NCBI GenBank assembly: GCA_965248445.1
Contig: CBDFJG010000003.1
Coordinates: 1,536,001-1,600,000 of the forward strand
DNA length: 64,000 bases
Origin: Planctomycetota bacterium
Lineage (GTDB): Bacteria > Planctomycetota > JAJSAM01 > JAJVHW01
Direction of reading: 5' to 3'
The notes beneath the pieces were generated by a model. It saw nothing but the letters and a program-made list of their open reading frames with translations. It had not been told where the DNA came from and did no database searches. The position numbers and the translations under genes are program-made. Within the stretch, counting starts at the first letter, position 1. Every line of letters begins with the position of its first letter. Shown piece after piece: positions 2,085 to 6,544 of the stretch.

Positions 2085-3233
2085 ATGGCCACCACACACT
2101 ACGCCGCTGCTCTTCTCGTCTTCGCCGCCGCCGGCTCCGCCTTCGCGGACGGAGCGGTCACGGCCGCGATCCAAGGGGAGGACCTGATCATCCGAGGTGA
2201 CGGGAGTGACAACCACATCACCTTCATCAGCGATGAGTTGTTCCAGTTCACGATCATCCCGGCCAACAACACGACGCTCAACGGCGCGATGCAGCCCGTG
2301 GTCTTCGACGTGCCGGCGGGCACCGTGGACATCCGTCTGGACGGCGGCAACGACTTCATCTCGATGGCTGGCGGCGTGGAAGGGAACAAGCTGCAGGTCA
2401 CGTTCGGCAGCGGCACGAACGACCTGTCCGCGACCGGCATCCGCTTCAACGACGTGACGGTTGAGGGCGGAGCAGGCCGCGACCACATCGTGTTCCTCGA
2501 CTCCGCCATCGACGGCAAACTGGTCTTCGACGCGGACGACGGTGACGACCGGCTCGACATCCGGGACTCGGCCGTGGGCAGCAAGACCACCGTGAAGGCC
2601 GGGGCGGGCGACGACGTCATCACGTTCGACGGAGTCAACTTCGGCAAGACGGTGAAGTTCGATCTGGGGACCGGCATCGATACCGTGAATTCGGAAGGCG
2701 CCACGTTCCAGGGCGCGCTGAAGGTCACGTTCGGCGCCGGCGGCGACGACTCGACCAATCTCGACAACCTCATCTGCCTCAAGAAGGTGAAGATCACCGG
2801 CAGCAGCGACACGCTCGCCCTCGGCCTGTTCGACTCCGACCTGCAGAAGGGCGGCAAGCTCAAGACCGGCGCCTCGAACGACCCGGTTCTGTTCGGGGGG
2901 ACCTCGTCGGGCAAGACGCTTTCGATTTCGAGCGGAGGCGGCGACGACGTGATCACCGGCGGTACCGACGCCGCGGTCTTCGGCGGCGCGCTCAAGATCA
3001 ACGCGGGTGACGGCAACGACTCGATCAGCGTCCGCGACGCCGAGCACGCCAAGAAGCCGAAGCTGAGCGGCGGCGACGGCGGCGACGCGTTCACGTTCGT
3101 AGGGAACACGCTCGCCAAGGGGGCCGTCCTGAACGGGGGCGCCGGAGACGACATCCAGGTCAACGACTTCGAGGCCGACAACACGGTCAATGGCGGGAAG
3201 CTCAAGGTGAAGAGCATCGAGCTCATCCCCTAG
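2085..3233 (+). CDS. Secreted repeat (beta-solenoid-like) protein with G-x-G-D-D turns
   Basis: Signal peptide MATTHYAAALLVFAAAGSAFA; repeated GAGDD/GGGDD/GDGND motifs; GC-rich third codon positions. Confidence 0.75.
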   Translation: MATTHYAAALLVFAAAGSAFADGAVTAAIQGEDLIIRGDGSDNHITFISDELFQFTIIPANNTTLNGAMQPVVFDVPAGTVDIRLDGGNDFISMAGGVEGNKLQVTFGSGTNDLSATGIRFNDVTVEGGAGRDHIVFLDSAIDGKLVFDADDGDDRLDIRDSAVGSKTTVKAGAGDDVITFDGVNFGKTVKFDLGTGIDTVNSEGATFQGALKVTFGAGGDDSTNLDNLICLKKVKITGSSDTLALGLFDSDLQKGGKLKTGASNDPVLFGGTSSGKTLSISSGGGDDVITGGTDAAVFGGALKINAGDGNDSISVRDAEHAKKPKLSGGDGGDAFTFVGNTLAKGAVLNGGAGDDIQVNDFEADNTVNGGKLKVKSIELIP

Positions 3234-3255
3234 CGGGCAGATACGGAGGGGACGG

Positions 3256-4611
3256 ATGAACGCAACCGGCAAGTGGCTCGGCTCCGCGCTGGGTAGCGCG
3301 GCAGCACTCGGTCTGATCTGGTGCGGCGCGATCCTCGCGCAGGACGAGGGCGCCATGCCGTTCGACCGGGCGAGCGCCGTCGGAGACTGGATACACGAGG
3401 ACATCGAAGCCGGCTACGCCGCAGCGCTGGAGTCGGGCAAGCCGCTCCTCGTCGCGTTCAGATGAGTCCCGTGAGCTGGCTGCGCCAGCATTGACGACCA
3501 GTTGGTCGTCCCCACCGACGAGGAACTCGCCAAGCTCAAGGACCAGTTCGTCTGCGTGCGTCTCATCCAGATGGGCGGGGTCGACCTCGCCACGTTCCAG
3601 TTCGATCCGCACCTCTCGTGGTCGCTGTTCTTCATGAACGGCGACAAGACCATCTACGGGCGCTACGGCCGTGCGCACCCCGACAGCAAGCGCGCCAAGA
3701 AGGACTCGAACACCAACCTGAACGTTCCCGGCATGAAGTCCGCGCTCGCCAAGGCGCTCGAGGTGCACGGCAACTACACCGCTGACAAGGAGACGTGGGC
3801 GCCACGACTCGCCGGCAAGACCGGACCCGAGCCGGCGTGGCGCTTCGCGGAGAAGACGCCGTCCGCCAAGAAGTACAAGCGCCAGAAGCGCGTGGAGAAG
3901 GAAGGCGAGCACGGTTGCGTGCACTGCCACGAGGTGCATCGCCACAACGTCGACTCGCACTTCATGACGAAGAAGGAGGTGCCGGACGACCTCCTGTGGC
4001 TGTATCCGCGACCACACGTGCTCGGACTCACGATGGTCGAGTCGGAGTGCGCGCGCGTCGAAGCGGTCTCAGAGGGTTCTCCCGCCGCCGCGGCCGGCAT
4101 CGCCGTCGGTGACGACATCGTGTCGCTCGGTGGCCAGCCACTCGTCTCGATCGCCGACCTGCAGTGGGTGCTGCACACGTTCCCCGACGAGGGCGGCAAG
4201 CTCGCGGCCGAGTTGCAGCGGGGCGAGAAGACCGTGAAGGTCGAGATCCCCCTCGCGCCGATGTGGCGACGCACCGAGGACTTCGCGTGGCGCTACCGCA
4301 CGTTCGGGTACGCGCAATGGCTGTGGGCAGGCGTCAGCTTCGAGGACTCGGCCGGAGGCGTGCGCGTCGCGGCCCGTGCGCCGTCGTGGTTCAAGCGCGT
4401 CCACCGAAGGGCCAAGCGCGAGTTCGAGGTCGGTGACGTGATCATCGACGTCGACGGTCGCGGCGACTTCGATCGCAGCGGCCTGATCGCGTACCTGATG
4501 CGCGACAAGAAGCTCGGCTCACGCGTGAAGATCAACGTCTTGCGTGACGGGAAGAAGGAGAAGGTCCAGTTCGACCTGCCCAAGAAGCAGCCCGAGGTCA
4601 TGGGCTACTGA
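3256..4611 (+). CDS. Thioredoxin-like (Trx7)/PDZ-domain selenoprotein with two in-frame UGA codons (U-V-P-U-A-G-C)
   Basis: ORFs 3256-3465 and 3502-4611 share a frame, separated by TGA GTC CCG TGA GCT GGC TGC. Read-through gives GKPLLVAFR-U-VP-U-AGC-ASIDDQL at the thioredoxin CxxC position. Later CVHCH and PDZ motifs (VSEGSPAAAAGIAVGDDI). Confidence 0.8.
3475..3510 (+). promoter_or_regulatory. Two tandem hairpins, candidate bacterial SECIS elements
   Basis: gctggc-tgc-gccagc (3475-3489) and gacgacc-agtt-ggtcgtc (3493-3510), immediately 3' of the UGA codons, each with a G in the loop. Confidence 0.5.
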
Positions 4612-4629
4612 CCGGCCAGTGCGGCGCCG

Positions 4630-5165
4630 CTACTTCTTGTTGACGACTGCGTCCTCGAGGTCCTTCAGACCCTGCTCGAATTTCGGGCCGAGCATCGGTT
4701 CCATCATCTTGGCGAACGCCTTGCCCATGAGGCCCTCGTTGACGCCGCGGTCCGTCCACGTGACGAGCGTCGTCCCTTCGCGGCTGCCGTCCGCGTAGAG
4801 GATCTCCCCCTCGAACGACGGGAAGCCCTCCATCGTCAGGTCGAACGTCATGCCCTTCTCGGGGTCGCTCATGGTGATGACCATCGAGCCGTTGCCCTGC
4901 GACTCGCTGATCCACGAGCGCGACGCGCCGACGCCCGTGGACTCCCCGTCGATGGTGATGACCATGTTTGGGTCCTCCTTCTCGAAGGGGCTCCACGTGG
5001 GCCACTTGTCCCAGTCCGCGGTGTACGCATGGATCTCGGCGCGCGTCGCGTTCATCTCCATCGTGCGCGTGACTTCCCACTCGCCCGACGAGAGCATGAT
5101 GCCGCCGCAGCAAAGCACGATCAGTGCGACCAACACGATTGCCACCCACTTGAGACCTTCTTCAT
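4630..5165 (-). CDS. SRPBCC (START/polyketide cyclase) family protein; apparent 1-nt frameshift near the start
   Basis: Core VTRTMEMNATRAEIHAYTADWDKWPTWSPF...GVGASRSWIS. An RBS (gaaggag) and ATG at 5165 would give MKKVLKWVAIVL if one C were restored near 5154; otherwise GTG start at 5145. Confidence 0.75.
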
Positions 5166-5278
5166 CGCTGCGTCTCCTTCACGTCTCGGGCGCTCCTCGC
5201 CCGGCGGCCGGTAGGGTAGGCACTCCCGGCCGCGCGAGTCCCGCCGAAACCGGAGCGCCGCCGACGGTTTGGAAACAC

Positions 5279-6544
5279 ATGCACGCGCGAATGACCCTGC
5301 TCTGCCTCGTGCTCGCCGTGGCCGCGCCCGTGGCGGACGGGCAGGACGCACCGACAGCCGCCCCGCCCGCGGCCCCCGCCAAGCCGAAGACCGGCCCCGC
5401 GAGCCCGGCCAACCAGCGACTCGCCGCCGAGTACAACGCGGCGCAGGCGGGCGTCTCGATGCTGGTCATGATCGGCGGGGAGGTCGTGTTCGAGGACTAC
5501 CCCACGAAACAGGGCGCCGACGCCGCGCACAGGCTGGCGAGCGGCACCAAGAGCTTCTCGGGCGCGATGGCAGTGGCTGCGCAGATGGACGGCCTTCTAA
5601 CCCTCGACGAGAAGCTCTCGAAGACGCTGACCGAGTGGGAGAAGGACGATCCCCGCTCGAAGATCACGATCCGCCAGTTGCTCTCGCTCTGCAGCGGCCT
5701 CGACCCGGGTGACAACTTCCGGCCGCCGACGTACGCCGACGCCGTGAAGGCGAAGCGCGTCGCCCCGCCGGGCAAGCGCTTCGCATACGGCCCCGGGCCG
5801 TTCCAGCTGTTCGGAGAGATCATGCGGCGCAAGCTCGCGGCGCAGTCCGCGGAGAAGACGCCCGACGTGCTTCGGTACCTGACCGAGAAGGTGCTGACTC
5901 CGATCGGACTCGACGTCGCGGAGTGGAGCCGCGGCAACGACGGGAACCCGTTCCTCCCCCACGGCGCGCGGCTCACAGCGCGCGAGTGGGCGAAGTACGG
6001 CGAGCTGATCCGGCGGCGCGGCAAGTGGGGCGAGAAGCAGGTGCTCGACGCCAAGCTGCTCGAGCAGCTGTTCCAGCGCAGCGAGGCGTTCCGGTGGTAC
6101 GGCGTGACGTGGTGGCTTCCGCAGGCGAAGCGCGGCGTGCGCGTCGACCTGCCCGAGGACCTGGTACTTGCCGCCGGACTCGGGGGACAGAAGCTGTGGG
6201 TCAGCCGCGACAACAAGATGGTCGTCGTCCGCCAGGCGCCGATGTTCAACAAGGCCGACTTCGACGACGACGAGTTCCTCGCACGTCTCCTGCACGGCAC
6301 GAACCGCGTCGGCAAGCCGCTGACGCCGGCGGGCGGCACAGGAGGCGGCGACGACGGGACCAAGCCGAAGCCAAGCGCCGCCGCCGAGCGCTTCCTTTCG
6401 CGGCACGACAAGAACGACGACGACATCCTGACCGCGGACGAGCTACCCCCCCGGCTCGTCGCGAAGTTCGACGATGCCGACGAGGACGGAGACGGCCGTC
6501 TCACACTCGCTGAGATCGCCGCCGCGTTCCCCGGCGCGCGCTGA
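5279..6544 (+). CDS. Serine hydrolase (class C beta-lactamase-like) with C-terminal EF-hand pair
   Basis: SxxK motif ASGTKS, ITIRQLL, FAYGP, LTAREWAKYG; C-terminal DKNDDDILTADE and DEDGDGRLTLAE EF-hand loops; signal peptide. Confidence 0.85.
   Translation: MHARMTLLCLVLAVAAPVADGQDAPTAAPPAAPAKPKTGPASPANQRLAAEYNAAQAGVSMLVMIGGEVVFEDYPTKQGADAAHRLASGTKSFSGAMAVAAQMDGLLTLDEKLSKTLTEWEKDDPRSKITIRQLLSLCSGLDPGDNFRPPTYADAVKAKRVAPPGKRFAYGPGPFQLFGEIMRRKLAAQSAEKTPDVLRYLTEKVLTPIGLDVAEWSRGNDGNPFLPHGARLTAREWAKYGELIRRRGKWGEKQVLDAKLLEQLFQRSEAFRWYGVTWWLPQAKRGVRVDLPEDLVLAAGLGGQKLWVSRDNKMVVVRQAPMFNKADFDDDEFLARLLHGTNRVGKPLTPAGGTGGGDDGTKPKPSAAAERFLSRHDKNDDDILTADELPPRLVAKFDDADEDGDGRLTLAEIAAAFPGAR

Follow-up and report, generated by a model that had tools for sequence, protein, structure and literature searches.

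The gene at positions 3256..4611 (+) of the window, meaning the whole 64,000-nucleotide stretch of planctomycetotal DNA that was analysed, is read here as one gene carrying two UGA codons that both encode selenocysteine (Sec), with a single downstream hairpin (hairpin 2) serving both codons and an extra hairpin (hairpin 1) acting as a collapsible spacer. On computational evidence, we assign this combined reading a probability of about 0.58. The gene belongs to a known family of Trx7/PDZ proteins, NF041199, and its UxxU form, together with the hairpin linked to the first UGA, is a new variant of that family.

Gene and Domain Organization

The reading frame opens at ATG 3256, with a Shine-Dalgarno-like GGAGG visible in the sequence 6 nt upstream (3245..3249, +), and extends for 451 codons to a TGA stop at 4609-4611. 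As the first-pass annotation of this DNA had described, two in-frame TGA codons fall on both positions of a CxxC motif, giving FR-U-VP-U-AGC. UGA1 (3463..3465, +), likely Sec70, is the first position of UxxU, while UGA2 (3472..3474, +), likely Sec73 from the sequence and the homolog motifs, is the catalogued Sec position of the NF041199 family. The Trx7/PDZ assignment made in the same annotation agrees with a match to NF041199 of 326.1 bits (cut-off 300) that covers model positions 2-389 of 390.

The protein begins with a likely signal peptide (approximately residues 1-30; 3256..3345, +), as judged from a hydrophobic core, pLDDT values below 50 and the similar leaders of homologs. In Pfam, a Thioredoxin_7 domain (PF13899, residues 45-121; 3388..3618, +) is matched at 37.5 bits, followed by PF13180 as two stretches. 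In the predicted structure (pLDDT 89.5, pTM 0.88, with both Sec modelled as Cys), a strand (residues 64-69) and a helix (residues 74-84) flank the UxxU motif, and the model places the motif between them in a thioredoxin-like manner. The third Cys of the motif, C76 (3481..3483, +), is kept in 71/81 UxxU homologs and absent in 10/81, and its codon makes up the hairpin 1 loop. Farther along the gene, the CxxCH motif and the PDZ domains noted previously are both found: CxxCH occupies residues 221-225 (3916..3930, +), PDZ domain 1 is recognized by Pfam at residues 256-333 (4021..4254, +), and PDZ domain 2 spans approximately residues 360-440 (4333..4575, +), with approximate limits drawn from the second PF13180 stretch and the strands of the model.

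Plain ORF calling recovers only a 369-aa product from TTG 3502. At least 79 of the relatives listed are called in a similar way, and closer relatives are annotated as shortened proteins of about 350-400 aa. Calls of this kind are compatible with a pseudogene, a split gene or an assembly error. However, both TGAs recur in 73 of the family matches listed, follow selA across genomes and come with conserved hairpins, and a split would cut the thioredoxin domain. Confirmation of the TGA codons in reads had also been proposed, and contigs from 4/4 public runs cross the gene with both TGAs present and 0 differences; these contigs come from one sample that may be the genome's own source, so their agreement excludes a slip in the final assembly only. 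Given the recurrent TGAs, the selA association, the conserved hairpins and the concordant run contigs, the pseudogene reading was rejected; together with a split or misassembled gene, it is exceedingly improbable. A single intact gene, read through both UGAs, is predicted with near certainty.

Neighbouring genes in the window encode a Gly/Asp-rich repeat protein without a Pfam match (2088-3233, +), a Polyketide_cyc2 (SRPBCC-type) protein (4630-5145, -) and a beta-lactamase-family protein with an EF-hand-like tail (5267-6544, +). Across 80 family loci, 0/5 window neighbours recur and no neighbours are shared beyond near-identical loci. As there is no recurrent neighbour, the gene context gives no function.

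Probable Selenocysteine at Both UGA Codons

The genome encodes selA, selB, selD and a tRNA-Sec with a UCA anticodon (selC), each above its curated cut-off, and thus the complete Sec machinery that the first-pass annotation had proposed to look for. A check of homologs for Cys or Sec at both motif positions had likewise been proposed. Cys is found at both in 39/39 full-length homologs among the 120 proteins listed, and Cys or TGA in 153/153 unique homolog motifs. Chance nonsense mutations at both Cys codons had been considered unlikely, in agreement with the presence of two TGAs in 73 among the 150 family matches listed. Additionally, selA occurs in 90/93 genomes with a TGA-type copy vs 8/25 genomes with Cys-only copies, related genomes in this comparison not being independent. 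With the machinery present, TGA kept in the run contigs and Cys carried by homologs, the original proposal of two Sec residues is well supported, and both TGAs are very likely read as Sec.

The protein would instead be CxxU or CxxC if tRNA-ReC (SelC*) read one or both UGAs as Cys. According to the available text of the 2026 study of UxxU hydrogenases, tRNA-ReC is found in about 56% of the genomes that encode these enzymes, and the same caveat is raised there (PMC13582414). In the present genome, searches with ARAGORN and Rfam found no tRNA-ReC; the genome is 92% complete, so such a gene could be missed. Default ARAGORN reports one tRNA with a UCA anticodon among 56, and one Rfam tRNA-Sec and one selB lie above their cut-offs, all of which argues against this alternative. 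Relaxed ARAGORN settings return 707 tRNAs, mostly false, and four non-selC UCA candidates inspected among those listed were rejected: one is a partial selC copy and no tRNA, two fold poorly and the last looks spurious. Reading of either UGA by tRNA-ReC is therefore considered very improbable.

An inverted duplicate of the 3' portion of selC, starting with the anticodon loop, lies at G000:C2:392732-392790 (-), about 63 kb from selC. This partial duplicate resembles an attachment-site remnant, and a transposase-like ORF pair lies 3' of selC. The selD gene (G000:C3:1080793-1081719, -; L004) contains a TGA within its frame and is a selenoprotein gene as well. Among its simple hairpins, the best has its loop at position +37, behind a stem of irregular shape.

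Distribution and Evolution of the UxxU Motif

In a phylum sample of 401 genomes, 136 contain a family match. Among 150 listed matches, with 31 others beyond the listing, a hand count found two TGAs in 73, one in 44 and none in 33. UxxU is the commonest form of the NF041199 family among these phylum matches listed, and 13/14 named relatives belong to the Planctomycetota. The homolog set was assembled from all TGA-bearing matches listed, 19/33 of those without TGA and further loci, for a total of 170 loci, of which 164 have the motif and 153 are unique. The unique motifs (n=153), whose proportions under-count CxxC, comprise 81 UxxU, 52 CxxU, 20 CxxC and 0 UxxC. In a FastTree phylogeny with 149 rows, from which four short rows were dropped and the codons of the motif and hairpins were excluded, the first Sec switches state at least 22 times.

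A paralog in the same genome (G000:C3:1610654-1611823, -; L008) carries UxxU as UDPUKDA, without the third Cys, and a GCAA tetraloop closes its hairpin 1. Adjoining family paralogs on one contig are seen at G235:C242, G306:C9 and G117:C255, and both copies are UxxU in the first two. The CxxC member L070 is nested among CxxU genes and retains hairpin 2, which suggests a recent reversion to Cys.

Hairpin 2 as the Candidate SECIS Element

Both hairpins described in the first-pass annotation fold as claimed, starting 9 nt after UGA1 and 18 nt after UGA2, respectively. Folding z scores against shuffles are -3.4 to -3.8 for stretches of 46-58 nt and about -1.6 to -1.7 for stretches of 89-98 nt. Hairpin 2 (3493..3510, +; 7 bp with an AGUU loop), the likely SelB-binding SECIS according to folding and homolog comparison, has a folding energy of -10.8 kcal/mol. 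Its loop lies 25 nt from UGA2 and 34 nt from UGA1, and the loop G lies 27 and 36 nt from these codons. As set out in the available text of PMC13188914, the bacterial SECIS model has a loop of 3-9 nt with G as its first or second nucleotide, mostly before G/U, at 16-37 nt from the UGA and with an energy of -7.5 kcal/mol or better (PMC13188914). Hairpin 2 satisfies this consensus model relative to both UGAs. An Rfam scan of positions 3200-4700 found no match with an E value of 1 or below.

The signature of hairpin 2 (G39+U41) is present in 81/81 UxxU, 49/52 CxxU and 3/20 CxxC genes, and the loop is G(G/U)U in 79/79. Hairpin 2 tracks any TGA and does not differ between UxxU and CxxU genes, and it served as the control in the phylogenetic tests. 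We predict with great confidence that it is the SelB-binding site. One SECIS per UGA, as was implied earlier, is probably not the arrangement here, as the conserved GU loop is found in hairpin 2 only.

Hairpin 1 and the First UGA

Hairpin 1 (3475..3489, +) has 6 bp, a UGC loop and an energy of -8.9 kcal/mol; it begins 9 nt past UGA1, with its loop 15 nt from that codon. By folding and homolog comparison, it tracks UGA1 and is a candidate spacer. An energy of -4 kcal/mol or lower is reached in 56/81 UxxU, 5/52 CxxU and 0/20 CxxC genes. Relative to a synonymous null made of re-encodings of the same residues, the observed energy differs on average by -3.2 kcal/mol in UxxU, 0.0 in CxxU and +0.3 in CxxC genes. 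When UxxU and CxxU genes are compared along their length in 60 windows, a strong difference is confined to the two hairpin-1 windows (p ~1e-13). The association persists in PGLS (t = -6.3 to -9.7) and in continuous independent pairs across the whole tree, where 18.2/22 change in the expected direction (median sign p 0.004); binary independent pairs restricted to strongly supported branches give no significant result (median p 0.22-0.45 over 13 pairs). In the clade to which the present gene belongs, with 21 rows of both types, a two-sided change is seen in 7/13 pairs, a count over related sequences and not a probability.

Hairpin 1 is conserved as a shape rather than a sequence, with 31 loop-and-position types in 9 registers among the 64 genes that have it. 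GU is found in 9/64 of its loops, and the loop Cys codon shows no shift to TGT (10/81 UxxU vs 6/52 CxxU). G is the first or second loop nucleotide in 55/64 cases, mostly forced by the Cys codon, and some loops, such as AACG and UCG, have no early G. Judged against the SECIS model, the UGC loop (G then C) and the 15-nt distance of hairpin 1 fail, while its energy (-8.9) passes. In 17/81 UxxU genes, including the closest homolog, L047, no hairpin 1 reaches 4 bp and -3 kcal/mol, and hairpin 1 is thus not obligatory. Hairpin 1 is stable when up to 8 nt after UGA1 are hidden by the ribosome (p >0.9), and not when 11 are hidden (p ~0.3). Selection of hairpin 1 for the decoding of UGA1 is predicted with as much confidence as the role of hairpin 2.

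Distance Parallels in Other Selenoprotein Genes

The selenoproteome of this genome is large: of 77 read-through candidates, some 20 or more are plausible Sec genes, most of them thioredoxin-like and several with no NCBIfam match. From the 77 candidates, 19 single-UGA genes were hand-picked by eye, and in 17/19 of these the loop G lies at +19 to +27. In the remaining two it lies at +32 and +35, with an intervening hairpin in each. These outliers, at G000:C4:671858 (+) and C4:186851 (-), represent thioredoxin-like single-UGA families (loci L270-L284 and L240-L269). Both families are unrelated to NF041199 and combine a far SECIS loop with an intervening hairpin at +9 to +12, which is better than its synonymous null in 11/12 members of one family and 28/30 of the other. 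In the 12-member family, the loops of the intervening hairpin are mostly without G (e.g., AUCA), and the sole member with a near loop (+26) has no intervening hairpin. In the 30-member family (+31), the extra hairpin is weak (mean -3.2, with -4 or better in 13/30), and the members are kin. When the hairpin-1 footprint is subtracted, the distance from UGA1 to the loop G of hairpin 2 becomes 18-25, with helix width not added.

In another family of this genome, the two UGAs are adjacent. The gene at G000:C2:719266 (+) (L192/L285, P0124; relatives L286-L288) encodes a likely exported protein with adjacent TGAs in GGDH-U-U-PS and no Pfam or NCBIfam match. In 61 genomes, 4/4 matches have TGA-TGA and a conserved hairpin, which is single in 4/4 and has its loop at +25/+22. 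These proteins are possibly an undescribed vicinal Sec-Sec family.

Proposed Decoding of the Two UGAs

While UGA1 occupies the A site, hairpin 1 would stand just outside the ribosome in its folded state, and the unpaired path from UGA1 to hairpin 2 would be shortened from 27 to about 12 nt. Three codons on, hairpin 1 would melt inside the mRNA channel, leaving hairpin 2 at the 18-nt distance from UGA2 that the CxxU forms with a single Sec also have. We infer that path shortening of this kind is the more plausible action of hairpin 1. A point against the spacer model is that the hairpin 2 loop, at 34 nt from UGA1, already falls within the published 16-37 nt.

This loop lies within the published range of both UGAs, and hairpin 2 might thus reach the two Sec codons unaided. 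Hairpin 1 would then enhance readthrough or impose a pause at UGA1, by slowing either the ribosome or release factor 2, much as the Sec redefinition element acts in eukaryotes. Hairpin 1 begins 9-12 nt past UGA1, near the point of mRNA entry, and its sequence-independence fits a pause equally well. However, a pure pause signal need not depend on distance, whereas the extra hairpin occurs in genes with a distant GU loop (+31 to +35), and the adjacent-UGA family, with a loop near both codons (+22/+25), has no separate hairpin. We consider a pausing role unlikely. In another arrangement, hairpin 1 would be a second minimal SelB element for UGA1, with hairpin 2 acting for UGA2. Hairpin 1 does track UGA1, has a G in the first two loop places in 55/64 cases, and starts at a distance (9-12 nt) near the 11 nt of Escherichia coli fdhF given in the available text of PMC8659212. 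Nevertheless, GU is found in 9/64 hairpin 1 loops vs a GU-type loop in 79/79 for hairpin 2, no synonymous move to TGT has occurred even though GU would then be cost-free, and loops without an early G (AACG, UCG) exist. Furthermore, the loop at 15 nt is below the 16-nt minimum and nearer than in 19/19 genes of the genome that were examined. Two equivalent SECIS elements were rejected on the rarity of GU in hairpin 1 loops and the short distance, and a tandem SECIS is quite improbable.

The preferred reading remains a collapsible spacer with hairpin 2 serving both codons. It can be extended, tentatively, to a general two-part bacterial Sec signal, in which a sequence-independent hairpin at +9 to +12 would collapse the distance to a far SelB loop. 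Within this family, gains and losses of the first Sec may have been accompanied about 20 times by those of such a signal, which may also recur in unrelated single-Sec genes.

Protein Function

The product would be a redox protein with a thioredoxin fold, and its hydrophobic leader suggests export. A UxxU pair at the thioredoxin site is suggestive of a selenol/diselenide redox pair, which would probably cycle between selenolates and a diselenide. CxxCH is present in 149/149 full-length homologs and the genome has cytochrome c assembly genes (two PF01578 matches), making a putative c-type heme on this motif likely. H171 is invariant in 98 aligned proteins. The Pfam search of the protein found no cytochrome families, and in a search of solved structures the best 60 of 115 matches cover the PDZ region only and include no cytochrome. 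The two PDZ domains would bind substrates or partners, and the redox protein would act on, or sense, partners held in this way.

Identity as an HtrA/DegP protease was rejected, as the best stretches lie in the PDZ parts and reach 47 bits vs a cut-off of 416; Pfam found no protease families in the protein. The SelL-related family NF040769 is absent among the 16 families that match with E values of 0.1 or below. Both selenoprotein L and bacterial Prx-like proteins (NF040769; PF00578) share with the present protein a UxxU motif in a thioredoxin-type fold, and a diselenide has reportedly been shown for selenoprotein L. Unlike these UxxU proteins, the present one has PDZ domains and CxxCH and does not match NF040769. 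Among the 62 matches listed for the SelL-like family, none has two TGAs.

Relation to Known Selenoproteins

In the available text of two surveys, NF041199 is catalogued as a CxxU family with one Sec (PMC13188914; PMC9312934), under the name 'PDZ domain-containing protein' in the latter. From table order and the CxxU motif, it probably corresponds to the 'putative secreted serine protease MucD' in an earlier report, which describes UxxU Prx-like sequences along with the CxxU 'MucD' family (PMC2398784, available text). The present gene shares with the catalogued family the Trx7 domain, two PDZ domains and Sec at the second motif position, and differs from its CxxU form in having UxxU and the extra RNA hairpin tied to UGA1. 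The description of a hidden selenoprotein in the first-pass annotation thus holds as to the selenoprotein, whereas its family had already been catalogued as one, in the CxxU form. Similarly, UxxU is less rare in bacteria and less confined to selenoprotein L than was stated there, being listed for Prx-like, metal-binding (NF041115) and FmdB proteins in the parts of the surveys available (PMC13188914; PMC9312934), and 16 UxxU hydrogenases were added in 2026 (PMC13582414, available text). In the literature as available to us, no account was found of UxxU in the NF041199 family or of a second hairpin; such cases may be present in the sequence data behind PMC2398784 and PMC13582414.

The UXXU-type Group 4 [NiFeSe] hydrogenases likewise have UGAs three codons apart, and their SECIS core is common to CxxU and UxxU forms, as with hairpin 2 here (PMC13582414, available text). 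They are unrelated proteins, and the available text describes no second hairpin; it proposes a single SECIS for both hydrogenase UGAs and leaves 'additional factors' open (PMC13582414). In addition, tRNA-ReC is often present with UxxU hydrogenases (PMC13582414, available text), whereas it was not found in this genome. The consensus bacterial SECIS, to which hairpin 2 conforms, is one stem-loop, with no separate distance-compensating hairpin described in the available text (PMC13188914). The portions of PMC8659212 and PMC10778597 that were available deal with fdhF SECIS geometry and contain nothing on double UGAs.

Significance

How two Sec residues are inserted three codons apart with a distance-limited SECIS is an open point according to the available text of PMC13582414 (2026). 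The NF041199 family provides a natural experiment on this point, with dozens of UxxU, CxxU and CxxC versions, and a family catalogued with one Sec is most often two-Sec in form among the Planctomycetota matches listed. Gene callers shorten these genes and some sources call their products proteases, and the protein itself is a likely exported one, with a possible diselenide beside a possible heme c. If the general two-part signal is true, one SECIS would decode two UGAs in turn, in a signal that switches itself off as the ribosome advances, and this would supply a design rule for bacterial double-Sec proteins.
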